IMG/VR virus record: IMGVR_UViG_2049941000_000876
Length of the DNA stretch: 37,222 bases
Strand: one strand, 5' to 3'
Origin: an uncultured virus (IMG/VR IMGVR_UViG_2049941000_000876)
Lineage: Duplodnaviria; Heunggongvirae; Uroviricota; Caudoviricetes
The notes below the pieces were generated by a model. That model was not told the DNA's origin, did not search any database, and saw only the letters and a list, made by a program, of their open reading frames with translations. Below, piece by piece: positions 12,917-32,947 of the stretch. A program made the translations under genes and the position numbers. How positions within the stretch are numbered: the stretch's first letter is position 1; each line of letters begins with the position of its first letter.

Positions 12917-13132
12917 ATGAAATGTACACACAATGATTGTTTCACTTGTCCATATCCAGATTGTATAGCTGGTGCAAAAACAGTTCCTAATAAGTCTGTA
13001 GTAAAGAAGGACAAAGCAAAGATATATAAATCTGAATATGATAGACAGAGATATCAAAAGAACAAAGATAAAATATTAGCTAAGTATCGTAAACGAAGGG
13101 ATGAGGAAAAGAGAAATGCAACCACTATTTGA
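12917..13132 (+). CDS. Small Cys4 zinc-binding basic protein
   Basis: GAGG SD; CTHNDCFTCPYPDC then basic helix; paralog at 24784. Confidence 0.7.
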   Translation: MKCTHNDCFTCPYPDCIAGAKTVPNKSVVKKDKAKIYKSEYDRQRYQKNKDKILAKYRKRRDEEKRNATTI

Positions 13133-15386
13133 GATAAAGAACACTAAAAGTAATGACATTGATATTTTACAGAAATCAAAAATGAGAAATAAAATTGTTA
13201 CCACTACAAATAAAAGTAGTGGTAATATTGCTAATAGAATAAAAATAATCGTGGCTAAAGTAGAGACCGCACTTGGTAAATATAAAGATGAAACTTTACT
13301 CATTCAAGATGAGCAAGTGCTCCATGATTATATTGATAAGTGTATTGCTAATGGAATATATGGAATAGATACAGAGACAACAGGACTTAATCCTTTATTA
13401 GATGAGTTGGTTGGTGTAAGTATTTATACACCTGGAGAGAAAACAGCTTATATACCTATAAATCATGTATCGTATGTTACTGGACAAAAAGTAAAGAATC
13501 AGTTATCATTAGAAGTAGTAGGAAAAGAACTTGCAAGATTACTTGGTATAAATTGTGATATGTTCAATGCCCCATTTGATATCAGATTTATCAAGAATCA
13601 TACAGGTACAAGATTAAAATGTACATGGGACGCATCTATAGCTTCAAGATGTTTAAATGAGAATGAGCCAAATAAGGGCTTAAAGAAGTTACATCAGAAA
13701 TATGTATTAAAGGGTCAGGAAGATGCTTTTAAGTTTGATGACCTATTTAAGGGTATAAGCTTTGCACTTATTCCTATCAAGACAGCTTCATTATATGCAG
13801 CCCATGATGCAAAGATTACATATGAGTATGCAGAATATCAGAGAAAATATCTTAGATTAGACCACGAAAGAGAAGATATGCGAAACATAGCTTGGGTATT
13901 TCATAACATAGAGATGCCTATAGTGGATGTTGTAATAGATATGGAAGACACTGGCATAGAGTTTGACATGGAATATAATAAAGAGCTTAAAGAAAAGTAT
14001 CATGCCTTGTTGAATGAGAAAGAAGAGAACTTCCATAAGCTATGCGAGATGTATAGAGAAGAGATTGATAATTATGATGGAAAAGTAAAGCTAGATGACC
14101 CAATAAATATTCAGTCTGTACCTCAGTTGCAAGTGTTACTTTATGATATTGCAAAATTACCTTTGTTCTTTGACAAGAGGCAGAAAAAAGAAACAAGAAG
14201 TACAGCAGAAGAAGCACTAAAGAAATTAAAGAATCCTATCGCAGATGCCGTATTAGAGTATCGTTCATTCTCAACATTAGTAAGTACATTTATAGATAAA
14301 CTTCCAGAGTGTGTCAATCCTAATGATGGACGTATTCATTGTAAGTTTAATCAATATGGAGCAGACACAGGAAGATTTTCTAGTCAGGATCCAAATATGC
14401 AGAATATCCCATCCCATGATAAAAATATCAGAAAGATGTTCAGAGCTAGTAAAGGATATGTAATGATGTCCGCAGACTTCTCACAGCAAGAGGTTAAAGG
14501 TATGGCTCAGATGTGCGGAGATGAAACAATGGCAGAAGCTTTTAGACAAGGCAAAGATTTCTACGCACAGATAGCAAGTGTGGCATTTAATTATCCATAT
14601 GAAGATTGTTTAGAGTTCAGACCAGATGGCACAACTAATCCAGAGGGTAAAGAGAGAAGAAGTCAAGCAAAGTCTATTCTGTTGGGTATAAACTATGGAC
14701 GTGGGGCTGCAAGTATCGCTGAACAGCTGGGATGTACAAAAGAGAAAGCAGAACAAATAAAAGAAGATGTATTTTTAGGATTTCCAGCTATAGCTAAGTT
14801 TGAACAAGATAGTTTTGAGATGGCAGAGACATTAGGTTATGTAACTACACTTTGGGGCAGAAAAAGAAGATTGCCAGATATGATGTTGCCAGATTATGAG
14901 TTTCAATGGGCAGATAAATCTGCATCAGATGATCCACTTGATTTTGACAGCGAGTTGCCAGAAGAAGTGCCTGATGAGATTATCAATAAATATCTTAGAA
15001 AACTATCCAAATGTTGGGGCGCTCAGAAGCGAAAGATATTTGAAGAGGCTAATGCAGAGGGTGTGTGGATTATAGATAACACCAAGAAGAAAGCAGATGC
15101 TAGTAGGCAGTGTGTTAATGCTCGTATTCAAGGCACAGCCGCTGACCAAGCTAAGTTAGCTATGATTGCATTACATGATGATGAAAGATTGAAAGAATTA
15201 GGCTTTAGAATACTCATTCCTGTACACGATGAAGTTATAGCAGAATGCCCTAAGGAAAATGCAAAAGAAGTGGCAGAAAGATTCGCTTATATAATGTCTC
15301 ATTCAAGCGGTGAGAAGTTTACAATTCCCATTTCATGTGACGTTGCCATTTCAGAACAGTGGTATGGAGAGGAAATAAAACTATGA
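13116..15386 (+). CDS. polA: Family A DNA polymerase (3'-5' exonuclease + polymerase; no 5'-3' exonuclease domain)
   Basis: DTETTG, FNAPFD, YAAHDA exonuclease motifs; TGRFSS..PNMQNIP; ADFSQQE (A); KSILLGINYG (B); VHDE (C); start 13116 chosen from GAGG spacing (13101 is the alternative). Confidence 0.95.
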   Translation: MQPLFEIKNTKSNDIDILQKSKMRNKIVTTTNKSSGNIANRIKIIVAKVETALGKYKDETLLIQDEQVLHDYIDKCIANGIYGIDTETTGLNPLLDELVGVSIYTPGEKTAYIPINHVSYVTGQKVKNQLSLEVVGKELARLLGINCDMFNAPFDIRFIKNHTGTRLKCTWDASIASRCLNENEPNKGLKKLHQKYVLKGQEDAFKFDDLFKGISFALIPIKTASLYAAHDAKITYEYAEYQRKYLRLDHEREDMRNIAWVFHNIEMPIVDVVIDMEDTGIEFDMEYNKELKEKYHALLNEKEENFHKLCEMYREEIDNYDGKVKLDDPINIQSVPQLQVLLYDIAKLPLFFDKRQKKETRSTAEEALKKLKNPIADAVLEYRSFSTLVSTFIDKLPECVNPNDGRIHCKFNQYGADTGRFSSQDPNMQNIPSHDKNIRKMFRASKGYVMMSADFSQQEVKGMAQMCGDETMAEAFRQGKDFYAQIASVAFNYPYEDCLEFRPDGTTNPEGKERRSQAKSILLGINYGRGAASIAEQLGCTKEKAEQIKEDVFLGFPAIAKFEQDSFEMAETLGYVTTLWGRKRRLPDMMLPDYEFQWADKSASDDPLDFDSELPEEVPDEIINKYLRKLSKCWGAQKRKIFEEANAEGVWIIDNTKKKADASRQCVNARIQGTAADQAKLAMIALHDDERLKELGFRILIPVHDEVIAECPKENAKEVAERFAYIMSHSSGEKFTIPISCDVAISEQWYGEEIKL

Positions 15387-16228
15387 ACACAGCAGTATTC
15401 ATATGTACACATGGAAGACCAAATTCACAACATACATTACATCTATTGAGAAATAGTGGATATACTGGTAAAATATATTTGATAGTAGATGATGAGGACA
15501 ATACACTTCAAGAGTTAATGTTAAAGACTTATGGGCAAGCTCAGATAGTAGAATTTTGTAAGCAAGAATATATAACTAAATCTGACACCGGAACGAATGA
15601 AAATCAGCGTAAGTGTATTTTATACGCTAAGAATTTTTGCGAAGACCTGGCGCAAAATATGAAGCTGGACGCATATGTTATAGCTGATGATGATATATTA
15701 AATTTTAGATTTAGATATCCTGAAGATGGTAGTTTGAAAAGTCAGAAAGTATTGACAACAATGGATGAAGTAATGGATGCTTATTATCAGGTCATGATTG
15801 ACTGTGATATGGTAGCAACAGGCTTTGGATTTACTCAATTCTATTTCTCAGGTTCAGAATCATTTGGCAATGAGAATATGCAAAAGTACAGAGTGCCTTA
15901 TAATTTTGTATTTAGAAATGCGAAGCATAGAGTAGATTGGATGAGTTGGTTCGGTGAAGATATAATAACAGCAGTATACTATGGAAGAATAGGTCAGTTG
16001 TGGACAGCACTACCATATGTTCAGCAAGAGATTGTAGCTTTAGCATCAGCAAGTGGTGGAATGAAAGATACTTATGACGGAAACTCTAGTGCAAGATTAG
16101 CTATGCAAAATGTTATGTATCTTCCTGCAGAGCTTAAAGCATATCTATATAAGGGCAAATTTATGGCATCTATAAAGAGAGAGCAAGCTTTTCCAAAGCT
16201 AATCAGTTCCAGTTTTAAGAAGCAATAA
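15383..16228 (+). CDS. Putative DNA glycosyltransferase (TET-associated/GREB1-like GT-A family)
   Basis: ATGA-coupled to polA; ICTHGRP, IVDDED, YAKN, ADDDI, GED, SGGMKDTY, FPKLIS; paralog of 16697..17563. Confidence 0.7.
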   Translation: MNTAVFICTHGRPNSQHTLHLLRNSGYTGKIYLIVDDEDNTLQELMLKTYGQAQIVEFCKQEYITKSDTGTNENQRKCILYAKNFCEDLAQNMKLDAYVIADDDILNFRFRYPEDGSLKSQKVLTTMDEVMDAYYQVMIDCDMVATGFGFTQFYFSGSESFGNENMQKYRVPYNFVFRNAKHRVDWMSWFGEDIITAVYYGRIGQLWTALPYVQQEIVALASASGGMKDTYDGNSSARLAMQNVMYLPAELKAYLYKGKFMASIKREQAFPKLISSSFKKQ

Positions 16229-16272
16229 GATGTTATATAATATTTATAGATATGAAGTTGAAAGGAGATAAT

Positions 16273-16710
16273 ATGAAGCAATTATTCGCAGACGAAAGTG
16301 TTAAAAATAATCCAATGGGAGATGATACAAAGTATTCAAGAGCAATAAGAGTACCTCAGTATGAGCCTAAGAATGAGAAGCCTATACTCGCATCAGTGTA
16401 TGATATCAATAAATATAGCAAGCTAATGGCTAGAATAAATAAATCTAATGTATCAGAAGAAGAGAAGAAATTTCTTAAATTCGCCGCATCAAGACATATC
16501 GTATTTAATTATAGTAAGATAGCAGATTATTATGCCCATGCAAGCGCAGAGATGCAGGAGCTTATGGAAGAATCAGCACTTGTTATTCTTGATATAGATG
16601 ATGCCATAGCTAATGGATATATAGCTCTTTCAGAAAAGATGCAACAACTTATTGAAGAAGAGAAAGCTAGGGCTGCAAAAGCTAAGGAGAATAAAGATGA
16701 GCAAACTTGA
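16273..16710 (+). CDS. Helical accessory protein between the two glycosyltransferases
   Basis: AAAGGAG SD before ATG 16273; PQYEP, RHIVFNYSKIADYYAHA, SALVILDIDDAIANGY. Confidence 0.75.
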   Translation: MKQLFADESVKNNPMGDDTKYSRAIRVPQYEPKNEKPILASVYDINKYSKLMARINKSNVSEEEKKFLKFAASRHIVFNYSKIADYYAHASAEMQELMEESALVILDIDDAIANGYIALSEKMQQLIEEEKARAAKAKENKDEQT

Positions 16711-17563
16711 TGATTTTGCAGTAATGATATTATGTCATGGTAGACCAGACAATACACCAACTTTTGATACACTAAGAAAGTATGGATATACAGGTAGAAT
16801 TATTATAGTTTGTGATGATGAGGATAAAACATTATCTGAGTATCAGAGAATATATCCAGAAGTACAAGTATTCAGTAAGGATTATGTAGCTACATATATG
16901 GACCCTATGGATAATTCTAATGATAGAAGATGTGCAGTATATGCCAGAAATGCTTGTTTCGATATAGCAGAAAGGTTAGGATTAAAATATTTTGCGGAAT
17001 ATGATGACGATTACACTTCACATCCATATAGATGGGAAGAAAATGGTGTTCTCTACAGAAGTTTACTTGCTAACTTGGATGAAGTGTTTAAAGCGTATAT
17101 GGACTTTATGGAGACAAGCGAAGAGATATATTCAATCGCATTCGGACAACCGGGAGACTTTATTGGTGGTTGCGGAAGTAGATTACATAGAGAAAGATAT
17201 AGACGAAAATGTATGAACAGTTGGATATGTAAGACAGATAGACGTTTTACATTTAATGGTAGAATGAATGATGACCAGCTTACATATAGTTTATATGGTA
17301 TGCGTGGAAAGATATTTCTTACATTCGACTTTATGATGATAGACCAGCCTGAAACACAATCAGTAAAGGGCGGAATGACAGATATGTATTTAGGGGCAGG
17401 TACTTATCAGAAAACATTTTTCTCGATTATGTGTTGTCCATCATTTATAAAAGCCGGTATGATGGGAGATAGATATTATAGAATACATCATAAAGTATCA
17501 CATGAAAATGCTTATCCAAAGATAATATCAAGTAAATATAAGAAAAAAGGAGAAGAAGGATGA
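16697..17563 (+). CDS. Putative DNA glycosyltransferase (TET-associated/GREB1-like GT-A family)
   Basis: AAGGAG SD; ILCHGRP, VCDDED, YARN, YDDDY, GRMNDD, KGGMTDMY, RIHH, YPKIIS. Confidence 0.72.
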   Translation: MSKLDDFAVMILCHGRPDNTPTFDTLRKYGYTGRIIIVCDDEDKTLSEYQRIYPEVQVFSKDYVATYMDPMDNSNDRRCAVYARNACFDIAERLGLKYFAEYDDDYTSHPYRWEENGVLYRSLLANLDEVFKAYMDFMETSEEIYSIAFGQPGDFIGGCGSRLHRERYRRKCMNSWICKTDRRFTFNGRMNDDQLTYSLYGMRGKIFLTFDFMMIDQPETQSVKGGMTDMYLGAGTYQKTFFSIMCCPSFIKAGMMGDRYYRIHHKVSHENAYPKIISSKYKKKGEEG

Positions 17564-18693
17564 AGTTTACAATTAACACAGCGCAGTTTCAAAACATGGT
17601 AGCAAAAGCAGTAAAGGGTGCAAGCATGAATAATGATTTATTCATTACTCAGCTTATATCTATTTCATTAAAAGATAATACCCTTACACTTACCACAACA
17701 GATAATAATAATTATCTGTATGTAAAGGCTAACAAGGTAGCAGGAGATGATTTCTCAGTAGTAGTTGGAGTAGATAAGTTTAGTAAACTTATAGCAAAGC
17801 TCACCTGTGAGAATGTAACATTAGAAGTGCCTGATTCAGAAGATGGAGAGTTAGATAAGCTGATTATCAAAGGTAATGGTAAGTATATTATTGAGTTGCC
17901 TTATGATGAGAATGGAGAGCTTATTGAGTTCAGTGATCCACTTGATGCTAGTAATGATAAGTTCTGGAGCAGTGGCACAACTCAGCTTTCAACAATTAAG
18001 CACATTCTCGCCACAGCAAAAGCCTCATTGTTAGTAAATAAGAACGATTCATGCTATGCAAACTATTATGTAGGCAATCGTGTAGTTGCTACAGATACAT
18101 ATAAGATTTGTGGTGTTGACATTAAGATTTTTGATACACCTAAGCTTATATCACCTGAACTTATGGACTTGATTGATGTAATGTCAACGGAGAATATTGA
18201 CATCAGATATAGTGACGATGTTGTAATTTTTGATGGCGCAGATGTAGTAGTTTATGGTGTAGTAGAAGAAGGTATAGAAAATTATCCTATTGATGCTATC
18301 TCGGGATTGCTTGATGAAGAGTTCCCTAGCTCATGTAAGATTGATAAATCAGCACTTATCCAGATGCTTGAAAGACTTACCTTGTTTGTAGATGAGTTTG
18401 ACAAGAACAGTGTATATCTTACATTCACTAAAGAAGGACTTATAGTATCATCTAAGCAAGATAGTGGTTCAGAGACAATTCCTTATTCTGATAGTAAGAA
18501 CTTCAAGGACTATACCTGCTGTCTTGACATCGACTTGTTTAAGACACAGGTTAAAGCATATCAAGATGAAGCTATCGAGATGCTTTATGGTAAAGAGAAC
18601 AGCCTCAAATTTGTAGGTGGAAACACAAAGCAGATTTTAGCTCTTGCTGATGATGATAGAGACACAGAAGAAGCTCCATTTAATGAGGAGTAA
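17560..18693 (+). CDS. dnaN: DNA polymerase III beta-type sliding clamp
   Basis: 377 aa; MKFTIN start, LTLTTTD, VVATDTYKI, NYP, LERL; three-domain length. Confidence 0.85.
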   Translation: MKFTINTAQFQNMVAKAVKGASMNNDLFITQLISISLKDNTLTLTTTDNNNYLYVKANKVAGDDFSVVVGVDKFSKLIAKLTCENVTLEVPDSEDGELDKLIIKGNGKYIIELPYDENGELIEFSDPLDASNDKFWSSGTTQLSTIKHILATAKASLLVNKNDSCYANYYVGNRVVATDTYKICGVDIKIFDTPKLISPELMDLIDVMSTENIDIRYSDDVVIFDGADVVVYGVVEEGIENYPIDAISGLLDEEFPSSCKIDKSALIQMLERLTLFVDEFDKNSVYLTFTKEGLIVSSKQDSGSETIPYSDSKNFKDYTCCLDIDLFKTQVKAYQDEAIEMLYGKENSLKFVGGNTKQILALADDDRDTEEAPFNEE

Positions 18694-18702
18694 TGACAAT
18701 CA

Positions 18703-18732
18703 AAGGGAGAGCTTTTAACTCTCCCTTATTTT
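18703..18732 (+). terminator. Intrinsic terminator
   Basis: AAGGGAGAG-cttttaa-CTCTCCCTT followed by ATTTT. Confidence 0.8.
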
Positions 18733-18746
18733 AACTGGAGAATAAT

Positions 18747-19541
18747 ATGGGACGAGAATCATTAAAAAATGTTAGTCGATTGATTTCAATAGCTAACACA
18801 ACACCATCAATAAGTGAAGCCTTTTTAGAAGATTTTAAAAGAAGTGTGATACTGACAGAAGAAAAGAATAGCGGTCTACCATCAGCCACTTTTAAACCAT
18901 CATCTCTTAATTGTGCAAGAGGATGTTACTATCAGATAATGGGAGTACAACCAGAAGGCGGAAGTGTATCATTTAATATGATTGGCATATGTAATAGTGG
19001 TAGTGATATTCATGTGAGAGTGCAGACCGCAGTAATGCAGATGATAGATAACGGGATAGATTGTGAGTGGATAGATGTAGAGCAGTATATAAAAGAAAAC
19101 AATCTTGATTATCTGATAGTCAGAGAGAAGAAAGGCACAGAGACAAAACTTTATGATACTAGATATGGAACATATATCAGTTTCATGTGTGATGGTATTA
19201 TAAAATATAAAGGAAAATATTACATCTTAGAGATTAAGACAGAGAGTAGCAATAAGTGGTATGGAAGAACAGATGTAGACCCAAAACATCATAAACAAGC
19301 CATTTCTTACTCAAATAGCTTTAAGATAGATACAGTATTATTTTTGTATGTAGAGCGTGATTTGCTCAATATGAAAGCATTTCAGTTCAATGTAACAGAT
19401 GATATGAGAAATGAGCTTGTACATTTCTTTAAGAATGTGCAGGGATATGTAGAGAGAAAGATAGTTCCCCCTAAAGATAATCTGCCAGCATCAGTGTGTA
19501 GATACTGTGGATATTCAGTACAATGCAGAAAGGATGGATAG
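18747..19541 (+). CDS. Cas4-like PD-(D/E)xK exonuclease with Fe-S cysteines
   Basis: PSSLNCAR, GSDIH, CDGII...LEIKT, QAISY, CRYCGYSVQC. Confidence 0.85.
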   Translation: MGRESLKNVSRLISIANTTPSISEAFLEDFKRSVILTEEKNSGLPSATFKPSSLNCARGCYYQIMGVQPEGGSVSFNMIGICNSGSDIHVRVQTAVMQMIDNGIDCEWIDVEQYIKENNLDYLIVREKKGTETKLYDTRYGTYISFMCDGIIKYKGKYYILEIKTESSNKWYGRTDVDPKHHKQAISYSNSFKIDTVLFLYVERDLLNMKAFQFNVTDDMRNELVHFFKNVQGYVERKIVPPKDNLPASVCRYCGYSVQCRKDG

Positions 19542-19542
19542 T

Positions 19543-20010
19543 ATGAATCGAAAAAGTCGTGGTAAGGATTTTGAAGGTATAGTAAGATTAGCTTTTGAGA
19601 AAGTACCTGATACAGCGGTGTATAGATTGCATGATGATATGTCGGGGTTTAAGGGGGTGAAAAATCCATGCGACTTCTTTATTTATCATAAGCCAATTTT
19701 ATATGCTATAGAGTGTAAAGCCACGAATAAACCATCACTTCCATTCAGTAATATCACAGAATATCAGTGGACAGAATTGCTAAGAATGTCAAAGATATCT
19801 GGAGTAGTAGCTGGTATCATGTGTTGGTTCGTCAATGAAGATGCAACACTATTTATACCCATTCAGATTTTAGAGATGTTAAAGCAGAATGGGGCAAAAA
19901 GTATCAGATATGATGCTGATGATTTCGCAATCATACAGATACCAGGCGTGAAAAAGAGAGTTTTTTGGACCTATGATATGTCAGTGTTATTCCAGTCGAT
20001 ACCTATGTGA
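19543..20010 (+). CDS. recU: RecU-like Holliday junction resolvase
   Basis: RGKDFE, PCDF, IECKAT, LPFSNITEYQ; start 19543 from AAGGA SD. Confidence 0.8.
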   Translation: MNRKSRGKDFEGIVRLAFEKVPDTAVYRLHDDMSGFKGVKNPCDFFIYHKPILYAIECKATNKPSLPFSNITEYQWTELLRMSKISGVVAGIMCWFVNEDATLFIPIQILEMLKQNGAKSIRYDADDFAIIQIPGVKKRVFWTYDMSVLFQSIPM

Positions 20011-20051
20011 AATGCGAGTATAATTAAAGAGAAAAAGAAAGTGAGTAGCCG

Positions 20052-20261
20052 ATGGGAGAGATAACAGAATTTTGTGTAGGATGTAGAAGATGTGCAAACT
20101 TAGCAAGAGTAGGAAAGAATACTTATTGTTGTTCAGAAAGAGTGCATATGGATGATACACCAGTAATGCCCATTGTAGATGGAAAACACACAGAAGATTG
20201 GAATGCTTGTGAGGGCGAAGATTATAAGCGAGTAGCAAGAAGTCAATCAAGAACAAGTTAA
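20052..20261 (+). CDS. Small Cys-rich hypothetical protein
   Basis: CVGCRRC...YCC...C; fits operon spacing. Confidence 0.65.
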   Translation: MGEITEFCVGCRRCANLARVGKNTYCCSERVHMDDTPVMPIVDGKHTEDWNACEGEDYKRVARSQSRTS

Positions 20262-20271
20262 GGAGAATAAC

Positions 20272-20769
20272 ATGGTAGACAAAGAAATTTTAGATAAGAT
20301 AGAAGCTAATTCTACAGAGATTGATAAGACAATCAATGATATTATTGAACGATACTCAGGAGAGCTTGATAATTATGTCAACTTCATAAGAGGTATTCTT
20401 AGAAATGATGAACAGCCTCCTACAGATGCAGAGCTTGATGATTTTGCCTTAAATCTTTCTACAATGATTTATTACACAAGTGTTGGCGCAGAACAGATGG
20501 GTATAAGAGATGATTTGTCACATTCTGTATATAAAGAAGCTTACAATTCAGCCCGTTCTTTACAGAAGTCTGGCACAGTAGCAGATAAGAACACACAAGC
20601 AGAGATTGACAGTACGGCAGAAAAGATAGTTAATATAGTCTATAACAAGTCATATAAGATTTTAAAGGCGAAAGTTGATTCCGCTCAAGAATTATTATCA
20701 TCAGTTAAGAAGATAATTAGTAGGCGTATGTCAGAGCAGGAACTATCAATGATGCAAACAAATAAGTGA
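20272..20769 (+). CDS. Helical protein, possible UvsY-like recombination mediator
   Basis: AAGGAG SD; all-helical pattern; directly upstream of recA; function inferred from position. Confidence 0.5.
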   Translation: MVDKEILDKIEANSTEIDKTINDIIERYSGELDNYVNFIRGILRNDEQPPTDAELDDFALNLSTMIYYTSVGAEQMGIRDDLSHSVYKEAYNSARSLQKSGTVADKNTQAEIDSTAEKIVNIVYNKSYKILKAKVDSAQELLSSVKKIISRRMSEQELSMMQTNK

Positions 20770-25014: not shown

Positions 25015-25540
25015 AATTTTCTTATTATCGTCATTTTTAGCGATTTTTATTCTAACTAATACAAATTATCAAGTTGAACATAAAATAGTTGTTCCGGCTA
25101 AAATTATTGATACAGAGACACAACCTATAAAGTATGTTGAGATAATAACTTTAGAAGAACAGCAAGAAGAGATACGAAACGAGATATATTATGGGGAGTT
25201 AGAAGAGTTAGCCTTATTAGTGCAAGCAGAGTCTGGCAATCAAGATGAGCTTGGTAAACGATATGTGGCTGATTGTGTATTGAATAGGGTTGATGATCCA
25301 GATTTTCCTGACAATATACATGATGTGATATATCAAACTAATCCCACTCAATTTTCTCCTACAACAGATGGTGGAATAGAAAAAGCTGGTTACACAATAA
25401 CAGAAGATGTATTTCAGATTGTGTTAGAAGAAGTAGAACAAAAGACAAATACCGAAGTAGTTTATTTTAGAACACAGAGGTATAGTAGTAGTGGACATCC
25501 AGCATTTAAGCACGGAGACCATTATTTTTCAACGAGGTAA
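24998..25540 (+). CDS. SleB/CwlJ-like (Hydrolase_2) cell wall hydrolase with N-terminal signal anchor
   Basis: LALLVQAESG...VADCVLNRV...FPDNIHDVIYQ...QFSP...GDHYF. Confidence 0.85.
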   Translation: MKRIVEIFLLSSFLAIFILTNTNYQVEHKIVVPAKIIDTETQPIKYVEIITLEEQQEEIRNEIYYGELEELALLVQAESGNQDELGKRYVADCVLNRVDDPDFPDNIHDVIYQTNPTQFSPTTDGGIEKAGYTITEDVFQIVLEEVEQKTNTEVVYFRTQRYSSSGHPAFKHGDHYFSTR

Positions 25541-25545
25541 AAGAT

Positions 25546-25692
25546 ATGATTAAATATGTAGTCATGGATCCTTGCACTGAAAATCATTCTCCTTTTTATT
25601 CAACAAAAGAAGAAGCAGAAAGAGACCTTTATAATGGCATTAGTTTTCAATGGTCATTAGAAGCAGAAATATTAGAAGCCGAGGTACGATGA
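25546..25692 (+). CDS. Small hypothetical protein (48 aa)
   Basis: GAGG SD; fills the gap between flanking genes. Confidence 0.5.
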   Translation: MIKYVVMDPCTENHSPFYSTKEEAERDLYNGISFQWSLEAEILEAEVR

Positions 25693-25887
25693 ATGAAATG
25701 TCCGTTTAGATTAAATATCGAATATGAGTATGGAGATTTAGATAATAAAGGAATTATTGCAGTAATAGAGCAAAGGGAAGTTTTCCCAGATTGTTATGAG
25801 AATGATTGTCCTTGTTGGAAATATGACCATCCAGACGGTTATCATTGTTTAAAAGCGGATGCTTTTGAGGGTATAGATGAAGAATGA
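25693..25887 (+). CDS. Small Cys-rich hypothetical protein
   Basis: MKCPF...FPDCYENDCPCW. Confidence 0.65.
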   Translation: MKCPFRLNIEYEYGDLDNKGIIAVIEQREVFPDCYENDCPCWKYDHPDGYHCLKADAFEGIDEE

Positions 25888-26794
25888 TGTGGCGAAAAAG
25901 ATATTAGATATATTGATAGAACATGAGGGTAGAGATAAGAAGATTTTATTTCTACCCTATAAGATTGAGATGTGGGATAGTATGGAAAGTTTATATTTAG
26001 AGTGTGTAGAGCAGGGTATAACAGTCAGAATACATCCCATACAATATAAAGAATATATATCTAAGCGGTCTTATAAGATAAAGTTTGATGATTGGTTTGA
26101 TAATGAAAACGTGATAAATTATAGAGAGTATATTCAATATAATCCAGATATCATTATTTTTCATTATCCTTTTGATGGTTATAATACTATCACCAGTATA
26201 GATACAACTTATAGGTCAGCTAATTTAAAAAGAGAGAATAGAACATTAGTGTATATACCGTATCATGGTTCATATATGACATCCAGAGAAGCATCTTTAC
26301 CTGCCGTTATATCATCAGATTATGTGTTTGTATCAGATAGTGGCGTAAAGGAGATATGTGAATCAACATGGAGAGCACATAATGTTAATAAATTACCCAA
26401 AATATACGCAACAGGTACACCAAAGTCAGATAGATTGGTGTCTATGGATGAAAATAGTAACACAGTGTTGATAGCAAATTCTTTAGGTCCATTTTTGAAT
26501 GATGTTGATAGAGTATCAAAATATATAACACTGATACTTGATGAGCTGAAAAAGGGCAGAAAAGTGATTTACAGACCTCATCCATTATTATACTCAGCTA
26601 TTCAATCAACTCAAATGGGAAGATTACCTAGTTATGATAAGTTTTTATCGTGGTTGAGATATAATAATGTCGAGATAGATGAGAGCAAAAGCTTTGAGGA
26701 TACCATCAGTAGATGCAGTTACATTTATAGTGATGGAGGAAGTATTTATGATATTTGTAGTAGAGCAGGAATGAAAGTGGGGCATATCATATGA
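25877..26794 (+). CDS. GT-B fold, CDP-glycerol glycerophosphotransferase-like protein
   Basis: ILFLPYK..MWDS, PDIIIFHYPFD, LVYIPY, GTPKSD, IYRPHP, YSDGGS. Confidence 0.6.
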   Translation: MKNDVAKKILDILIEHEGRDKKILFLPYKIEMWDSMESLYLECVEQGITVRIHPIQYKEYISKRSYKIKFDDWFDNENVINYREYIQYNPDIIIFHYPFDGYNTITSIDTTYRSANLKRENRTLVYIPYHGSYMTSREASLPAVISSDYVFVSDSGVKEICESTWRAHNVNKLPKIYATGTPKSDRLVSMDENSNTVLIANSLGPFLNDVDRVSKYITLILDELKKGRKVIYRPHPLLYSAIQSTQMGRLPSYDKFLSWLRYNNVEIDESKSFEDTISRCSYIYSDGGSIYDICSRAGMKVGHII

Positions 26795-27147
26795 CTATAC
26801 AAGAAAAGATACGGCAGAGAAGAAGGCAGATGTTAGTTCATTCTTATATTTATTATGAGCTTGATGATAATATTGTTTCAGATGCACAGTGGGCAAAATG
26901 GGCAAAAGAATTACAAGAGCTACAAGAGAAATACCCAAAAGAATCATCAGAAGTAGAGGATTATGAGCAGTTCAAAGATTGGGACGGATCGAGTGGCGCA
27001 TTTTTAAATTTTTCGGAGGCTATAAAGACCGTGGCAAAAATTCTTCTAGGAATAAAAAGTCCTAGTCTACATCAGATAGAATCAAAAAAGAAAGTACAAG
27101 AGATTCCCAAAAAGAAATTAAAATCAGATACACGGAGTTTGTTCTAA
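26791..27147 (+). CDS. Stand-alone NAD+-dependent DNA ligase subdomain Ia-like protein
   Basis: HSYIYYELDDNIVSDAQW...ELQELQEKYP resembles the LigA N-terminus; no KxDG adenylation domain. Confidence 0.75.
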   Translation: MTIQEKIRQRRRQMLVHSYIYYELDDNIVSDAQWAKWAKELQELQEKYPKESSEVEDYEQFKDWDGSSGAFLNFSEAIKTVAKILLGIKSPSLHQIESKKKVQEIPKKKLKSDTRSLF

Positions 27148-27152
27148 ACGTG

Positions 27153-27180
27153 TTGACATTTACGTTGCATATAGTATAAT
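27153..27180 (+). promoter_or_regulatory. Sigma-A-type promoter
   Basis: TTGACA-16 nt-TATAAT followed by leader AACACATTTTGAAAGGAG. Confidence 0.78.
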
Positions 27181-27223
27181 GATATATGTAAATGATATAT
27201 AACACATTTTGAAAGGAGAAAAG

Positions 27224-27406
27224 ATGAATAAGCCAACGAAAGAACAGTTTGAAGAGTATGTAAGAATCAGAAATAGTGGTATAACTAATATGTGGGATAT
27301 CACATTTATAGTAAGCATCTCTAATACAGGACTCACAGAAGATAATTGTTTTTATATCATGGATTATTTTGATGAGTTAGCAGAAGAGTATGAGGTGGCA
27401 GTATGA
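27224..27406 (+). CDS. Small DUF5049-like protein
   Basis: AAAGGAG SD; IRNSGITNMWD motif. Confidence 0.6.
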   Translation: MNKPTKEQFEEYVRIRNSGITNMWDITFIVSISNTGLTEDNCFYIMDYFDELAEEYEVAV

Positions 27407-27744
27407 CCCGTCCAACACGATTTTATTCATCTCGTCAAGAAAAGAAAGTTGCAAAAGCTATAAATGGTAGACAGACAGCAAACTCTGGTGCAAGTGCATG
27501 GTCAAAGGGAGATGTAACTTCGGATATCATGTTAGTGGAATGTAAAACACACACTGAGTTAAGAGAGCAGTTTACCATTAAAAGAGATTGGATATTAAAG
27601 AATGAAGAAGAAGCATTCCAGATGGGCAAAAGATATTCAGCATTAGCGATAGACTTCGGTGATGGTGAGCAACACTATCTTATAGACCAGAGATTGTTTC
27701 TTGAATTATTAGAGCATTTAAGGGAGGTCAATAATGAAAATTGA
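27403..27744 (+). CDS. Small PD-(D/E)xK nuclease (resolvase-like)
   Basis: QEKKVA...SGA...KGDV...LVECK. Confidence 0.7.
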   Translation: MTRPTRFYSSRQEKKVAKAINGRQTANSGASAWSKGDVTSDIMLVECKTHTELREQFTIKRDWILKNEEEAFQMGKRYSALAIDFGDGEQHYLIDQRLFLELLEHLREVNNEN

Positions 27745-27874
27745 CATTCTTGAATATCTAAAAGAGGAGGAGAAAAAGAAAAGAGAGCGGGAAATACAAT
27801 TACATGAGGAACTAGAGTATATGTATGAATTGGGATTATATAATCCACATGAAGATGCAGGAGATAGAATATGA
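27734..27874 (+). CDS. Small acidic hypothetical protein (46 aa)
   Basis: GGAGG SD; coupled to neighbours. Confidence 0.55.
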   Translation: MKIDILEYLKEEEKKKREREIQLHEELEYMYELGLYNPHEDAGDRI

Positions 27875-28047
27875 CAGGCAGTAATTATAGAGACGATGTA
27901 AATGATATTTTTGACTACATGAAAGATGATTTAGCTACCATTATATCTGAGATTGATACTTTGCTTGATATGGAAGATATTGAGGATATCAAGATACATC
28001 TTTCAGACCTTAAGAATACTGCAATAGATGTGAGGATGAGATTATGA
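27871..28047 (+). CDS. Small acidic hypothetical protein (58 aa)
   Basis: AGGAG SD; ATGA overlaps at both ends. Confidence 0.6.
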   Translation: MTGSNYRDDVNDIFDYMKDDLATIISEIDTLLDMEDIEDIKIHLSDLKNTAIDVRMRL

Positions 28048-28271
28048 ACGAAGAACATTTCAGTAAGCGGGATAAAAGAATATATGACCATCTTGTAGAT
28101 TACGGCAGTATTACAAGTTGGGAAGCTATTAAAGAGTATGGTTGCACCAGACTTTCTGATGCCATTTATCATCTCAGAAAGAAAGGACATAACATTGTCA
28201 ATGAGCAGGAGAGTAGCGTCAACAGATATGGCGAGAAAGTAAGTTATGTGAGGTACGTATTATATGACTAA
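28044..28271 (+). CDS. Winged-HTH small protein
   Basis: GSITSWEAIKEYGCTRLSDAIYHLRKKGHNI. Confidence 0.75.
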   Translation: MNEEHFSKRDKRIYDHLVDYGSITSWEAIKEYGCTRLSDAIYHLRKKGHNIVNEQESSVNRYGEKVSYVRYVLYD

Positions 28272-28842
28272 GAGAGATTTAGTAAAGTGGTTAGAGAAGA
28301 AAAAGCCTGAAGCTATAGCTAAAGCAGATAAGGCTAGAGAGAAAGCAATCCTTGATGCCAAAGAGTTAGAGTATAAAGAGATAGGATTTGATGAGTTTTT
28401 AGAAGATGCGATACCGCATTTACAGAGATTCATCAAGAAGTATGGTGAGTTTATTGACAAGGTCAATGCTCTTGATGGATATTCAATGAGCAGATATAAC
28501 TGGCATTACGGCTATAATGAGTTCGTATCAAGATTTGGAGATATAGTGACAATACGAAAGAATATAGAGGAAGTAATTCATCTTGATACTGAGAGATACA
28601 GGAAAGCAAGGGATAATGCTAATTCCAATAGACGGGAAGTAGAATCGACATATAATACAGTTATAGAGACTGTTAAGAATCTTCCTACAGCTAAAGATGG
28701 ATTAGAGTATCTAAAGAAGCTCGGTTTTGATGTGTCAGAGATTGAGCCTGCAGAGAAGAAAAAACAGTTACCTGCAACCATCAGTGTCAATGTTGATGTG
28801 AAGTATCTACTATTAGATAACAAGGAGAACGATGAGAAATGA
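28264..28842 (+). CDS. Hypothetical helical protein
   Basis: 192-aa ORF coupled to both neighbours. Confidence 0.75.
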   Translation: MTKRDLVKWLEKKKPEAIAKADKAREKAILDAKELEYKEIGFDEFLEDAIPHLQRFIKKYGEFIDKVNALDGYSMSRYNWHYGYNEFVSRFGDIVTIRKNIEEVIHLDTERYRKARDNANSNRREVESTYNTVIETVKNLPTAKDGLEYLKKLGFDVSEIEPAEKKKQLPATISVNVDVKYLLLDNKENDEK

Positions 28843-29378
28843 AGTCATTAGCAGTAAAGTACAGACCTAAGACATTTGATGATGTTCTTGGACAAGATGC
28901 AGTAAAGATTATTTTAAAGCAACAGTTGGAGAGCGGCAATATTCATTCAGCTATGTTATTCTGTGGACCATCTGGTGATGGAAAGACAACCACTGCAAGA
29001 ATCTTTGCAAATGAATTAAATCGTGGTAAAGGTAATCCTATTGAGATGGATGCAGCCAGTCATAATGGTGTAGATGATGTCAGAGAGATTTGTAAAATGG
29101 CAGGTACAAAAGCAATAGATGTAGGACCAGATGGATATAAGATATTCATAATAGATGAAGCACACTCTATTTCCAACACTGGTTGGCAAGCATTTTTAAA
29201 GACGATAGAAGAACCGCCTGCTAGAGTAGTATTTATCTTTTGCACAACGGATCCTCAGCGTATCCCTCCAACTATACTAAGTCGTGTCCAACGGTACAAC
29301 TTTACTAAGGTATCAGAAGGTGATATAAAGAAACGATTGTTGCAAATTTTAGAGACTGAAGGATATACAAGAAAATGA
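28839..29378 (+). CDS. dnaX: Clamp loader gamma/tau-like ATPase, N-terminal fragment
   Basis: LAVKYRPKTFDDVLGQ, GPSGDGKTT, EMDAAS, IIDEAH, LKTIEEPP, TILSRVQ; ends at LETEGYTRK. Confidence 0.92.
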   Translation: MKSLAVKYRPKTFDDVLGQDAVKIILKQQLESGNIHSAMLFCGPSGDGKTTTARIFANELNRGKGNPIEMDAASHNGVDDVREICKMAGTKAIDVGPDGYKIFIIDEAHSISNTGWQAFLKTIEEPPARVVFIFCTTDPQRIPPTILSRVQRYNFTKVSEGDIKKRLLQILETEGYTRK

Positions 29379-30196
29379 GTAGTGTATATTGTATAAGAAA
29401 TGTGATGACGGGTTGTGTATATGTTGGCAGTACCACAAATTTTGATAATCGTATCTCAATTCATATTGATAGGCTGTCTAAACGAAATCATCCGAATAGA
29501 AGTTTACAGAATGATTGGTTATCTTATGGTGAAAATTCATTTGAAATCTTTATTTTAGAGGAAGTTTTAGATGACAGCATACTTATTAGTCGAGAGCAAT
29601 ATTGGATAGACTATTATGGTGGCATAAATTCAGATACGACATATAATATGAGGGATGCAGGTAGTTCTGGAACGTTTTGTGATGAGATTAAAAAGTCCAT
29701 TAGTAATTCTAAATCAGGTGTGCCATTATCAGAAGAACATCGCAGGCATATAAGTGAAAGCGGTAAAGGCAAAGTAATTTCAGAGGAAACACGTTATAAA
29801 ATAAGTGAATCAAATAAGATTACTCATAGTTTACCAGAGTATATTAAACGACAAAGTGAATATACAAAACAGCAGTGGTTAAATCCTGAGTATCGTGAGC
29901 TGATGACAAATCTGTGGAAAGGTCGCAAACATACAGATGAGACCCGTAAAAAGATGTCAAAAAGTGCCAAGCGAAGGGCTAATACAGAAGAATATAAATT
30001 AAAAGTGCAAAAAGAGCATGGTAAACCTGTTGTAAAAATTGACCCGTTTTCGCATGAGATTGTTGCCATTTATCCTTCTGTTTTGTTTGCATCAAAAGAG
30101 AATGGATTAAATCATAACACAATAAGAAATTACTGTGAGAAAAATAAAATATTAGCAGGATATATTTGGAGGTATATAGATGCAAAAAACATATGA
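29375..30196 (+). mobile_element. GIY-YIG homing endonuclease gene inserted in dnaX
   Basis: SVYCI...VYVGS, EQYWID, YN; NUMOD3-like SEEHRRHISES and HTDETRKKMSKS; C-terminal GYIWRY; overlaps both dnaX fragments. Confidence 0.88.
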
Positions 30197-30695
30197 TGAA
30201 GGAGCAGTGTCATATATAGCTAAGTTAGCAGATGGTGGAGTACGATTAGCCATTCAGTATCTTGAGAAATGTCTGGCATATAGTGATGAGCTTACTACAG
30301 AGAATGTTGTTAAGGCACTTAACGTCACAAACTATGATAACTTCATTCATCTTACTGACCTTATTCTTTCTCAGAATAAGTCTGAGCAGATTAAATTTTT
30401 AGATGAAATTTACGCATCCGGAGTTGATTTTAAGCAGTTTTTGAAGCAGTATGTACAATTTATACTTGATGTAAATAAAACGTTGATTTTAGACGATTTA
30501 GACGAAGCATTTAAGTATATCAGTTTGCCTAAAACATCAGAAGTAGAAACATGGTTGATAACGACATTGAAAGATGGAGATTTGGAGACCTATAATAGAC
30601 TGCTCAGCCATTTAATAAAGTTGGATGCAGATTGTAAGTATTCACAGAACCCAAAAGTTGATATAGAGTGTGGAATATTATTATTTGAGGTGTGA
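30180..30695 (+). CDS. dnaX: Clamp loader gamma-like subunit, C-terminal fragment (lid + collar)
   Basis: YDEGAVSYIAKLADGGVRLAIQYLEKC sensor-2 helix; own GGAGG SD at 30168-30172. Confidence 0.85.
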   Translation: MQKTYDEGAVSYIAKLADGGVRLAIQYLEKCLAYSDELTTENVVKALNVTNYDNFIHLTDLILSQNKSEQIKFLDEIYASGVDFKQFLKQYVQFILDVNKTLILDDLDEAFKYISLPKTSEVETWLITTLKDGDLETYNRLLSHLIKLDADCKYSQNPKVDIECGILLFEV

Positions 30696-30955
30696 TTATG
30701 AAGATAATGTGGGACGAAAATCAAGTAAAGAGATACTATGACAACAATGGCGAAGAGATACACGCTGGCAATTATGTTGTATTTGGTTCAGCAGAAGAGG
30801 CAGAAGCACATAATATAGAAAGAAAGCCAGAAAAAGTATATCTTTGTGCCGATGAAGAAACACTTGGTACAGATGCTACTAATCCCAAGTGGTGGTATGG
30901 AATTTATCCATTTAATGAAGCTGATGAAGTATATCTAGTTGAGGTAAAAGAATGA
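30692..30955 (+). CDS. Hypothetical protein
   Basis: GAGGTG SD; YYDNNGEEIHAG resembles a YopX-like segment; exact start uncertain. Confidence 0.6.
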   Translation: MIMKIMWDENQVKRYYDNNGEEIHAGNYVVFGSAEEAEAHNIERKPEKVYLCADEETLGTDATNPKWWYGIYPFNEADEVYLVEVKE

Positions 30956-31755
30956 TTGGACAACAAGCGTTGTTAGATAAGATTGACCGGATGATAGAAA
31001 CGGAAAGATTTCCTAGATTCTCCATTGTAGTTGGAGAAAGGGGGATGGAGCATGAAGATGTGGCAAAATATGTCGCATATAAGATGAAGTGTTCCATTAT
31101 AGTTTTACCTGATGTTAGAGTAGATACTATCAGAGATATGATAGCACAGGCATATAAACTTCATAAGCCAACTGTGTTCTGCATACCTCATGCAGATGAT
31201 ATGTCGGTCAATGCCAAAAATGCTATTTTGAAGGTAGTAGAAGATGCCCCCAATAAAGCATATTTTGTAATGTGTTTAGAGGATATCAACAATACTTTAG
31301 CCACTATTGTAAGTAGGGGTGTAGAGTTAAGAATGATAAGTTGTGGTGCCAAAGATATTTATGATTATGTGAAGAGTTTAAAGCCAGAGCTTAAAGATAT
31401 AGAGCTTTATGTGAATATCTGTGATACACCAGGTGATGTACAATATTTTATGTCACATGATATACATAATTTCTATAACTATGCAAAATATGTAGTTGAG
31501 AATATGACACAGATGTCAGGTGCAGAAGTGTTTAAGCTATCTGAAAAGTTGGCGTTAAAAGATGAGGATGATAAGTTTGACCTCAGATTATTTCTTAAAT
31601 GCCTTCAAATTCTATATATCGAACGAACAGAATATGCACTAGCATATCAGGTAGGAAGATATTTAGAAGATTTAAAAATAAAAGGTATCAATAAGTCTAT
31701 GCTTGTAGACAATATGATACTCCAAGTGAGGAAAGTATGGAAATCACAGAAGTAA
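30952..31755 (+). CDS. holB: Clamp loader delta'-like subunit
   Basis: MIGQ start, degenerate Walker A, VDTIRDMI, ADDMSVNAKNAILKVVEDAP, ATIVSRG. Confidence 0.8.
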   Translation: MIGQQALLDKIDRMIETERFPRFSIVVGERGMEHEDVAKYVAYKMKCSIIVLPDVRVDTIRDMIAQAYKLHKPTVFCIPHADDMSVNAKNAILKVVEDAPNKAYFVMCLEDINNTLATIVSRGVELRMISCGAKDIYDYVKSLKPELKDIELYVNICDTPGDVQYFMSHDIHNFYNYAKYVVENMTQMSGAEVFKLSEKLALKDEDDKFDLRLFLKCLQILYIERTEYALAYQVGRYLEDLKIKGINKSMLVDNMILQVRKVWKSQK

Positions 31756-32648
31756 AAAATCACATTAAGACAGGGCAGTATGATAAGTTTTATATTTTTT
31801 GTGGTGAAGAACATGCCGTGATGAAGATATATCTAAAAATGATGGCAAAAGATAAAGAGCTTACATATGTAGATAATCTTGTGGATTTAATGTCCGGAGT
31901 AAGAACAAAATCATTAGTTCCAGTGCACCATTTATATGTAATAATGAATGATAAAGAGTTTCTGACCAATGAGAAGATGTGGCAGAAATTCAAAGGACTA
32001 AAAGATGATATAGTGGTATTTTATTATACCAATGCAGATAAACGATTAAAGTTTTGGAAACACTTTAAGGATAAAGTGGTGGAGTTTAATAAGCTTGATG
32101 ATAAAATACTGATGAAGTACATTCAAAAAGAGTGTGAATTTAGAGAGGATTTATGCTTGCGACTTATTGAAGCCTGTGACCATAGTTATGGACGAATCCT
32201 TTTAGAGTTAGATAAGGTCCGAATGTACTCCAATTCTGAAAAAGTGACGGCGAACAGTGTGTTAGAGAAATTTCTTGACAGCGGTGTCATATTTAATCAG
32301 CCAAAAGATGCTATATTTGATTTTGTAGCCGCAGTGCTAGAAAGAGTACCATCTAAAGCATATAATCTATTACAACAATCTAAAGCTATTGGAGAAGCTA
32401 ATCTGACACTCCTGGCTGTGCTTTATAACAATATTAAAACACTTTTACAAGTGCAATCATCAAGAGACTATAAGGCGCTAGGGATTAACTTTTGGCAAGC
32501 AAAGAATGTTCTTCCATTTAAGAATAATTATAGTAATGGTGAGTTAGTCAATGCTATGCAGATTATCAGAACTGTGGAAAAAGGAATAAAGACAGGAACA
32601 GTACCTGATGAGTTAAGCGTGGAATATGTATTAGTTCAGATTATGTGA
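31737..32648 (+). CDS. holA: Clamp loader delta-like subunit
   Basis: FYIFCGEE, DKRLKFWK, LELDKV, IFDFVAAV, EKGIKTG. Confidence 0.8.
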   Translation: MEITEVKNHIKTGQYDKFYIFCGEEHAVMKIYLKMMAKDKELTYVDNLVDLMSGVRTKSLVPVHHLYVIMNDKEFLTNEKMWQKFKGLKDDIVVFYYTNADKRLKFWKHFKDKVVEFNKLDDKILMKYIQKECEFREDLCLRLIEACDHSYGRILLELDKVRMYSNSEKVTANSVLEKFLDSGVIFNQPKDAIFDFVAAVLERVPSKAYNLLQQSKAIGEANLTLLAVLYNNIKTLLQVQSSRDYKALGINFWQAKNVLPFKNNYSNGELVNAMQIIRTVEKGIKTGTVPDELSVEYVLVQIM

Positions 32649-32662
32649 AAGGAGGAAAGAGT

Positions 32663-32947
32663 ATGAGATGTCCTAATTGTGGGAGTGACAATCTAGCAGT
32701 AATGGAGACAATCAATCAGCCCGAAACTACATTAAGACAAAGGAAGTGTAGTGATTGTGGTTTTAAGTTTTATACTAAAGAGATTGTGGTGCCTGCTGAT
32801 ACTGTTAAGCCTGTATTTGATGAGTGGATAAGAGAGCGGTCAAGAAAATGCAGAGCGAAGAAGAAAGGGATAAACTATGATGTCAGATTTGAAGATGGAA
32901 GAGAACAACCCGTTACCCCGAAAAAACCTACACAACCTCTGTTTTAG
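32663..32947 (+). CDS. NrdR-N/Ogr-like zinc-ribbon protein
   Basis: AAAGGAGG SD; MRCPNCGS...ET...RQRKCSDCGFKFYTKE; no ATP-cone; ends TQPLF. Confidence 0.75.
   Translation: MRCPNCGSDNLAVMETINQPETTLRQRKCSDCGFKFYTKEIVVPADTVKPVFDEWIRERSRKCRAKKKGINYDVRFEDGREQPVTPKKPTQPLF

Follow-up and report, generated by a model that had tools for sequence, protein, structure and literature searches.

Terminal Leu-Phe peptides as candidate clamp-binding tags in the replication module of an uncultured phage

Why do several proteins of one phage replication module begin or end in the same two residues? The question is raised by a 37,222-nt stretch of DNA from an uncultured caudovirus (IMG/VR record IMGVR_UViG_2049941000_000876; the whole stretch is called the window), a one-strand replication module of ~35% G+C. 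Four of its proteins carry Leu-Phe (LF) at a terminus: the family-A DNA polymerase (PolA), a 145-aa protein encoded between two TET-associated glycosyltransferase (TAGT) genes, a solo Nlig-Ia domain and an NrdR-type zinc-ribbon protein. The original prediction, made from the window alone, held that a shared [Q/R][P/S]LF peptide docks these proteins on the beta sliding clamp of the phage. Our comparisons make it probable that x-L-F peptides are shortened clamp-binding tags on four clients of the phage clamp, a reading that draws on sequence and its distribution among phages.

Leu-Phe at the ends of four phage proteins

The window tags read MQPLF (PolA), MKQLF (145-aa protein), TRSLF (Nlig-Ia) and TQPLF (zinc ribbon), and all four were found where they had been predicted. 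For PolA the longest open reading frame (ORF) begins at 13101 (MRKREMQPLF), with an ATG that abuts AAGGG at zero spacer. A second ATG, at 13116, follows a GAGGA Shine-Dalgarno by 8 nt. Because only this second ATG has a Shine-Dalgarno at a usable distance, PolA is taken to start MQPLF (13116-13130). The MKQLF start of the 145-aa protein (16273-16287) is preceded by AGGAG and 5 nt, and the Nlig-Ia protein (ORF to 27147) ends SDTRSLF, with RSLF at 27133-27144. The zinc-ribbon protein ends KKPTQPLF (QPLF, 32933-32944; stop to 32947), and its start was set at the ATG at 32663, giving 94 aa, since all homologues begin MxCPxC.

QPLF occurs twice in the 11,440 translated residues of the window, both times at a terminus, with ~0.03 copies expected from composition. 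Two of the 66 ORFs end in LF versus ~0.18 expected; stricter gene calling leaves 73 genes, two with a C-terminal LF and two beginning M.{0,4}LF. That N-terminal pattern arises by chance in ~1-2 of every 130 genes. It is weak from one genome alone, and its weight comes from conservation.

Conservation was followed in database homologues and in six related IMG/VR contigs, of which four are complete or nearly so (G001-G004, 73-75 kb), one is a fragment (G005) and one is more distant (G006). Retention of the motif in orthologues was borne out in all four families. Every one of 44 PolA homologues begins M-x(0-4)-L-F, two of them behind an evidently mis-called start; 31 read MPLF and the rest MKALF, MKGLF, MPALF, MQQSLF, MAQALF, MKLF or MGLF, and a variable Ser/Thr/Lys-rich linker follows. 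LF closes 70 of 71 zinc-ribbon homologues (PTSPLF in 66 of the 71), the exceptional one having three more residues beyond it. Among the 120 Nlig-Ia homologues listed of 325 matches, 119 end in LF and 97 in RSLF, and the tail upstream of the tag varies in length and sequence. In these three families variable sequence surrounds a conserved motif. The 145-aa protein keeps MKQLF in all five complete relatives (5/5), and the peptide recurs at loci L034, L037 and L039. In G001-G004, which have 124-140 called genes each, just 2-3 proteins end in LF, always including the Nlig-Ia and zinc-ribbon proteins; few proteins have LF at the N-terminus, and in each genome PolA and the 145-aa protein belong to them.

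The exact form [Q/R][P/S]LF was not shared, as orthologues read MPLF, SPLF and RSLF. Judged from these homologues, what is conserved is x-L-F at the very terminus, with a small or basic residue before it, and the Q/R and P/S positions are variable. Among zinc-ribbon homologues a QPLF ending belongs to the window copy only. Q was gained twice in this phage (MPLF to MQPLF in PolA, SPLF to QPLF in the zinc ribbon), an anecdotal hint of a common partner. Clamp residues unique to the window phage, checked for co-variation with the Q-containing tags, showed only conservative changes.

The tags had also been placed at flexible termini, and this was confirmed with AlphaFold2 (AF2) models of the zinc-ribbon and 145-aa proteins and from sequence variability for PolA and Nlig-Ia. 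The zinc-ribbon model has a mean predicted local distance difference test score (pLDDT) of 82, and its tail (residues 68-94) scores ~60 with no secondary structure. The 145-aa model has a pLDDT of 63; its residues 1-42 score ~40 and are predicted to be disordered. The PolA linker is of low complexity and varies among homologues, and the Nlig-Ia tag lies ~30 residues past the Pfam domain on a variable basic tail.

Three relatives (G001, 40964-41281; G003, 5969-6286; G004, 31032-31352) encode, a short way downstream of the zinc-ribbon gene, a conserved 105-aa protein beginning M-[QE]-[VM]-L-F-[DS]-ERDYEPLK. It may be a fifth tagged protein, and it was not seen among the called genes of the window. 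The conserved GILLFEV near the DnaX C-terminus was not counted as a tag: more residues follow it, and it looks like the hydrophobic end of the last helix.

Co-occurrence of the tags with a phage clamp

By sequence, length and the accompanying DnaX, delta-prime and delta genes, the window clamp appears to be a bacterial-type (DnaN) beta clamp. It matches DNA_pol3_beta at 32.4 bits against a cut-off of 24.4, over the N-terminal domain only, and its profile matches a DnaN structure (PDB 3t0p) with E = 0.0017 over profile positions 12-294. Mapping of the peptide cleft by sequence failed, this sole PDB match being too poor to place residues.

If the tags bind this clamp, they should track phages that encode one, and in a small sample the PolA, Nlig-Ia and zinc-ribbon tags do. 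The sample holds three to four clamp-encoding lineages, one clamp-less PolA lineage and, for Nlig-Ia, seven phages without a clamp match; controls are few, and 'clamp-less' means only that tblastn with the window clamp gave no match. That search hit 7 of 50,697 phage records, which represent five phages: phiCTP1 (two records), FA88, Dp-1 (two records), MS1 and Flasso. These are exactly the nearest PolA relatives (Clostridium phiCTP1 and FA88, Streptococcus Dp-1 and MS1, Bacillus Flasso; 38-44% identical in PolA). PolA starts MALF in phiCTP1, MAQKGLF in Dp-1 and MS1, MFQNSLF in Flasso and MPLF in G006, whose clamp is 38% identical to that of the window; the FA88 start was left out of this comparison. 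The next PolA relatives, the Clostridium CS phages, gave no clamp match, and PolA of CS32 starts MFYTRDN.

On the Nlig-Ia domain the tag changes ends. It is N-terminal in phiCTP1 (MNLF), MS1 (MAQRTLF) and Dp-1 (MQKSLF, counted from a Met inside the annotated ORF), in each case with a basic linker next to it. In all seven sampled phages lacking a clamp match (Paul, CS32, Phives, cd3, SPAsTU, Porthos and C2), Nlig-Ia has no terminal LF. A terminal LF is therefore found in 3/3 clamp-encoding lineages versus 0/7 phages without a clamp match (Fisher p = 0.008). All five records that carry the zinc-ribbon gene encode a clamp. Neither the Nlig-Ia nor the zinc-ribbon gene was detected in G006, and for this reason we regard both as accessory clients.

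Bacterial beta-clamp-binding peptides follow the consensus QL[S/D]LF or QxxL(x)F, and the bacterial clients include Pol II, Pol III alpha, Pol IV, UmuC, delta, Hda and MutS. The window system is like these in having a short peptide ending in L-F, at a flexible terminus, on several unrelated DNA-metabolism proteins, beside a DnaN-type clamp with a DnaX/delta/delta-prime loader. It differs in that the motif is cut to x-L-F at the first or last residues, with Q mostly absent (MPLF, SPLF, RSLF); in its novel clients, namely the PolA N-terminus, a solo Nlig-Ia domain, an NrdR zinc ribbon and a protein with a ParB C-terminal domain; and in its very divergent phage clamp. The window tags do not fit the consensus forms QL[S/D]LF or QxxLF; only the x-L-F end agrees, and Q-x-x-L-F has no match in the 66 ORFs. 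Canonical-type motifs do occur in distant homologues, as MQQSLF in PolA and as QKSLF and QRTLF in the Nlig-Ia proteins of Dp-1 and MS1.

The delta subunit (HolA) has a conserved x-K-S-L-V/I loop before a beta strand at residues ~55-62 (TKSLV in the window, NNSLF in phiCTP1, QKGLV in Dp-1). The loop resembles each phage's own terminal tags and also the clamp-contacting MSLF element of E. coli delta, of which it may be the equivalent. Alignment of the phage HolA to solved delta subunits gave no true match.

The sliding clamp as a tool-belt has been reviewed (PMC9690074), and one bacterial Pol I is described as carrying a clamp-binding motif (bioRxiv 10.64898/2026.09.19.751633). Among phages, the Mu C protein acts through a terminal clamp-binding motif on the host beta clamp (PMC12867686), and T4 gp33 and gp55 act with the gp45 clamp (PMC7892883; PMC2988020 as a related source). 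Closest in replisome make-up are Ma-LMM01 and RSL1, in which PolA occurs with a homologue of the Pol III beta subunit and a clamp-loader subunit, the beta homologue having been suggested as the PolA processivity factor (Kazlauskas and Venclovas 2011, PMC3201878). The available part of that paper names no docking motif on PolA, whereas a conserved N-terminal tag is present here; Ma-LMM01 and RSL1 are jumbo phages, whereas the present group comprises 56-108-kb Firmicute-type phages. Our literature search found no description of tags on phage PolA, Nlig-Ia or zinc-ribbon proteins. The Dp-1 two-hybrid interactome (PMC3019816) may bear on the matter, and the main text of the Dp-1/host interactome (PMC4840434) does not contain 'DnaN', 'clamp' or 'Gp10'.

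The tagged proteins and their neighbours

The Nlig-Ia protein is an Ia domain without the ligase catalytic module, and it also matches phrog_6466 ('DNA ligase', 7.8e-30). Solo Nlig-Ia domains have been reported in 81 phages and proposed to sense free NAD+ (Iyer, Burroughs, Aravind and co-workers 2022, PMC9503650). The window protein shares with them the stand-alone NAD+-binding Ia domain that lacks a ligase module; it differs in that the Nlig-Ia of clamp phages carries a terminal LF on a basic tether, which goes unmentioned in the portion of that account available to us. We propose that the tag would place the domain at the clamp rather than leave it a free NAD+ sensor.

The 145-aa protein had been called a glycosyltransferase accessory protein. 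It consists of the MKQLF tag, a conserved, predicted-disordered region of ~40 aa, and a helical domain that matches positions 148-216/217 of phrog_620 (6.5e-8). The nucleotide-binding or nuclease-like N-terminal domain of ParB is absent, and a protein atlas search gave no match. A profile built from the protein retrieved 1,256 relatives, in most of which the domain is the C-terminal half of a ParB-like phrog_620 protein. Among the best 150 of the 1,256, 106 are of this longer form and 30 stand alone. Full-length members have 250-290 aa, and 7/7 tested match phrog_620 ('ParB-like partition protein') end to end (positions 5-217). [LMI]F precedes the core in 20/30 stand-alone versus 16/106 ParB-fused forms of these 150 (p = 1e-7), and Q-x(1-3)-[LMI]F in 9/30 versus 1/106 (p = 4e-6). 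Stand-alone relatives start MKQLDLF, ..KQLRLF, MKQGNLF and MKQIALF. Compared with the longer proteins, the stand-alone ones therefore have a clamp-binding-type peptide in the place of the ParB N-domain.

What the 145-aa protein might do is indicated by its company. One relative, P0291, is a natural fusion of a TAGT glycosyltransferase with a ParB-like protein, and ParB-like proteins activate phage 5-methylpyrimidine dioxygenases in hypermodification pathways (PMC13229309). Because of this fusion and these activators, the 145-aa protein is likely an adaptor of the two flanking TAGT glycosyltransferases, the first of which has no LF tag of its own. It resembles the activators and phrog_620 in its helical core, which corresponds to the C-terminal part of that family, and differs from them in having a clamp-binding-type peptide instead of the ParB N-terminal domain. 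The accessory label can thus be refined: the protein represents the C-terminal portion of a ParB-like family and carries the tag instead of the N-domain. The TAGT fusion strengthens the tie to DNA modification.

Other modification proteins also end in LF. In G006 only two of 98 proteins have LF as their exact end (L059, 14187-15068; L060, 1661-2626), and the gene for one of the two lies between those for PolA and the clamp. Their matches are to the N6_N4 DNA-methylase family, strong in one case (3.4e-21) and weak in the other (0.0032, below the Pfam cut-off). The DNA-modification link appears fairly well supported by these comparisons. DpdA, the DNA 7-deazaguanine transglycosylase, was tried as a further client and proved non-discriminating: it ends in LF in all six sampled phages whatever their clamp status (QRRLF, QGKLF, IQELF, EQRLF, VMELF and IQELF). 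In Xanthomonas phage DoCa3 the gene after DpdA is annotated as a replicative clamp, and Pseudomonas phage HTN2 encodes a processivity factor two genes beyond its DpdA gene, on the downstream side.

The zinc-ribbon protein had been described as NrdR/Ogr-like. The NrdR part of the label holds, as shown by the Pfam match, by Foldseek, in which the top ten matches to the model are all NrdR chains, and by BLASTP (35% identity over 68-71 aligned residues to a 159-aa NrdR-type zinc-ribbon protein on MT837292.1); the Ogr part found no support. Record MT837292.1 (L061) is labelled 'Bacteriophage sp.', yet its 159-aa protein adjoins a 796-aa membrane-protein-like ORF, from which it looks like bacterial DNA. 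In the AF2 model a three-stranded ribbon (1-41) is followed by a basic helix (45-67) and the disordered tail ending PKKPTQPLF. No Pfam match to an ATP-cone was found in the 94 aa, and because the ATP-cone is absent, we describe the protein as an NrdR-derived domain and not as NrdR. It shares the N-terminal four-Cys zinc ribbon with NrdR, the repressor of ribonucleotide reductase genes, and has a basic helix and an LF-tagged disordered tail instead of the ATP-cone sensor. Sites fitting the NrdR-box consensus numbered 0 in the window at up to three mismatches versus 1.9 expected. G002 alone among the relatives has a pair of AT-rich palindromes, spaced by 33 bp and resembling an NrdR-box pair, between genes ahead of the packaging genes (63915-63965, original coordinates).

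The zinc-ribbon protein, which is basic and likely DNA-binding, is like T4 gp33/gp55 and Mu C in being small and having a tag at its end. It differs in that the clamp here is phage-encoded and of the bacterial beta type, and Pfam, PHROGs and Foldseek revealed no homology to gp33, gp55 or Mor/C. By this analogy a clamp-coupled regulatory role is plausible, and participation in replication-coupled transcription would be speculative.

Genes were identified with Pfam and PHROGs (Table 1).

Table 1. Genes of the window and, in the last three rows, DpdA loci of other phages
Feature	Position	Strand	Basis
SNF2 helicase and DnaC-like loader genes	window		Pfam/PHROGs
DnaB-like helicase	7494-8849		Pfam/PHROGs
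Primase gene	window		Pfam/PHROGs
SSB	11252-11923		Pfam/PHROGs
Family-A DNA polymerase (3'-5' exonuclease and polymerase)	13116..15386	+	Pfam DNA_pol_A 5.3e-94, DNA_pol_A_exo1 8.2e-11
TAGT (TET-associated glycosyltransferase) paralogue 1	15383..16228	+	Pfam PF20691 1.5e-23; start inferred as first ATG
145-aa protein between the two TAGT genes	16273..16710	+	Shine-Dalgarno AGGAG; phrog_620 C-terminal part
TAGT paralogue 2	16697..17563	+	Pfam PF20691 3.9e-28
Divergent bacterial-type beta sliding clamp, 377 aa	17560..18693	+	Pfam DNA_pol3_beta 1.1e-7
Cas4-like nuclease, RecU and RecA genes	window		Pfam/PHROGs
Solo Nlig-Ia domain, 118 aa	26791..27147	+	Pfam PF22745 1.3e-27 over residues 3-86
DnaX N-terminal fragment (AAA+ domain)	28839..29378	+	Pfam DNA_pol3_delta2 and AAA; aligns with residues 3-173 of intact orthologues
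DnaX C-terminal fragment (lid and collar)	30180..30695	+	Pfam DNA_pol3_gamma3; aligns with residues ~180-354 of intact orthologues
Delta-prime-like clamp-loader subunit	30952..31755	+	Pfam DNA_pol3_delta2 1.2e-14
Delta (HolA) clamp-loader subunit	31737..32648	+	Pfam DNA_pol3_delta_C 5.1e-13
NrdR-type zinc-ribbon protein, 94 aa, directly after delta	32663..32947	+	Pfam Zn_ribbon_NrdR (PF22811) 3.2e-8
DpdA, Dp-1 (QRRLF)	L043 3793-4728		
DpdA, Flasso (QGKLF)	L031 23341-24237		
DpdA, other sampled phages	L052-L055		

A free-standing GIY-YIG/NUMOD3 homing-endonuclease gene (29375-30196) divides dnaX into ORFs of 179 aa and 171 aa, with the break point at the boundary between AAA+ domain and lid; Rfam detected no intron there. 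In G001, G002, G004 and G005 dnaX is intact, and in G003 it encodes 658 aa with an in-frame insert of ~380 aa, possibly an intein. PolA is truncated after ~515 residues in G001 (17993-20326) and G002, with a GIY-YIG ORF next in G001, so that the polymerase gene seems to be split by a homing endonuclease in those relatives and is whole in the window. Two tRNA genes (12021-12093 and 12572-12654) lie between the SSB and polymerase genes. A paralogous ORF pair (33255-33914 and 36591-37220) has near-identical ends (MQSSGRNNLEILKHDL... and MQSSGENNLKILMSDL...), with no family match and no orthologue among five relatives. Three runs of 10 N occur at 35879-35888, 36065-36074 and 36528-36537.

The phage clamp as putative receptor

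That the phage clamp is the receptor, and what each tethered protein would do there, we infer from the comparisons above. From the end of its tether, each tag would fit its Leu-Phe into the hydrophobic cleft of the beta clamp that the phage encodes (17560-18693), and the phage DnaX/delta-prime/delta loader (28839-32648) would load this clamp. The clamp would then act as a tool-belt with several clients. An N-terminal tag would give the family-A polymerase processivity. The clamp would also bring to the fork the solo NAD+-binding ligase domain and the ParB-C-terminal-domain adaptor of the two TAGTs, so that DNA would be modified on or just behind the newly made strand, and, once loaded, it would tether the small, NrdR-derived, probably DNA-binding zinc-ribbon protein. 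The clamp-hub idea of the original prediction gains from conservation of the tags, their co-occurrence with a clamp gene, the canonical motifs of distant homologues and a firmer link to DNA modification; it loses the fixed [Q/R][P/S] positions and the Ogr-like label.

Several observations weigh against a clamp receptor. The window tags match just two or three positions of QL[SD]LF and so are low in information content. The clamp is so divergent that conservation of its peptide cleft is not checkable by sequence, the clamp-less PolA control is the single CS lineage, and the 145-aa protein is 82% conserved overall in its close family, so its invariant N-terminus says little alone. DpdA, as said, carries LF regardless of the clamp. 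In every lineage examined, an acidic tail closing in F or Y is found on the helicase and on SSB, and the Flasso helicase ends EELF; because these proteins carry a second set of aromatic tails, a terminal F alone is not clamp-specific.

These tails bear on where else an LF peptide might dock. The DnaB-like helicase and SSB share an acidic tail with an aromatic end, NEDDF and NEDDY in the window, and the pair co-varies: EDDY/EDDF in close relatives, TEVF/ADVF in phiCTP1, EELF/TEVF in Flasso, VEAF/RGRGF in Dp-1 and EDVF/RDDF in G006. They have the look of another docking code, similar to the polymerase-binding tails of T7 gp4 and gp2.5, and they imply that terminal-peptide docking on non-clamp partners exists in this replisome. 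With SSB C-terminal tails and those of T7 as precedents, the LF tails might likewise dock on another replisome hub, be it SSB, the DnaB-like helicase or PolA itself, since the same phages carry both kinds of tail. We consider this quite unlikely: the LF tags are basic or neutral rather than acidic, PolA itself bears one, the sequences of distant homologues approach the clamp consensus rather than an SSB-type tail, and the tags co-occur with the clamp gene.

The tags might instead be genuine clamp-binding motifs aimed mainly at the host beta clamp, to hijack or sequester it in the manner of Mu C and of known phage inhibitors. Distant forms such as QLDLF, QLRLF and QKSLF equal the cellular consensus, Mu C uses the host clamp (PMC12867686), and DpdA also ends in LF in phages whose clamp status was not examined. 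The PolA and Nlig-Ia tags nevertheless track phages with their own clamp and loader, the short x-LF forms have neither the Q nor the first hydrophobic position of the cellular motif, and where a phage supplies polymerase, clamp and loader itself, an internal receptor is the obvious choice; the host clamp as main target is thus an unlikely explanation. Far less credible still is a coincidental or structural LF, or a stability or degradation signal, without a common partner. Only two residues are shared, M.{0,4}LF is common enough by chance, as noted above, and the terminal LF of DpdA is possibly structural. Against coincidence stand the near-invariance of LF in 44, 71 and 120 (listed) homologues beside variable or disordered linkers, its move from the C- to the N-terminus on the same Nlig-Ia domain, its loss in relatives without a clamp match and its enrichment in stand-alone over ParB-fused forms.

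Docking on the phage's own clamp, the reading we favour, can be extended to a fuller and more speculative picture. A two-letter terminal x-L-F code would make the private beta clamp the organising centre of infection. The CTP-gated DNA-clamp module of ParB would have been swapped for a clamp-riding peptide, so that new DNA is glycosylated at the fork; Nlig-Ia would be a clamp-bound NAD+ module for the sealing of Okazaki nicks; and the zinc ribbon would be a clamp-dependent transcription or regulatory factor, the Firmicute-phage counterpart of T4 gp33 and Mu C. That every element of this picture holds together is doubtful.

If the favoured reading is true, a five-residue N-terminal tag explains how a family-A phage polymerase couples to its own beta clamp and loader. 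The solo Nlig-Ia domain, the truncated NrdR zinc ribbon and the ParB-C-terminal-domain partner of the glycosyltransferases would all be assigned a site at which to work, the clamp at the fork. A minimal terminal x-L-F tag could then serve to predict, with sequence as the only input, which proteins of uncultured phages belong to the clamp interactome.

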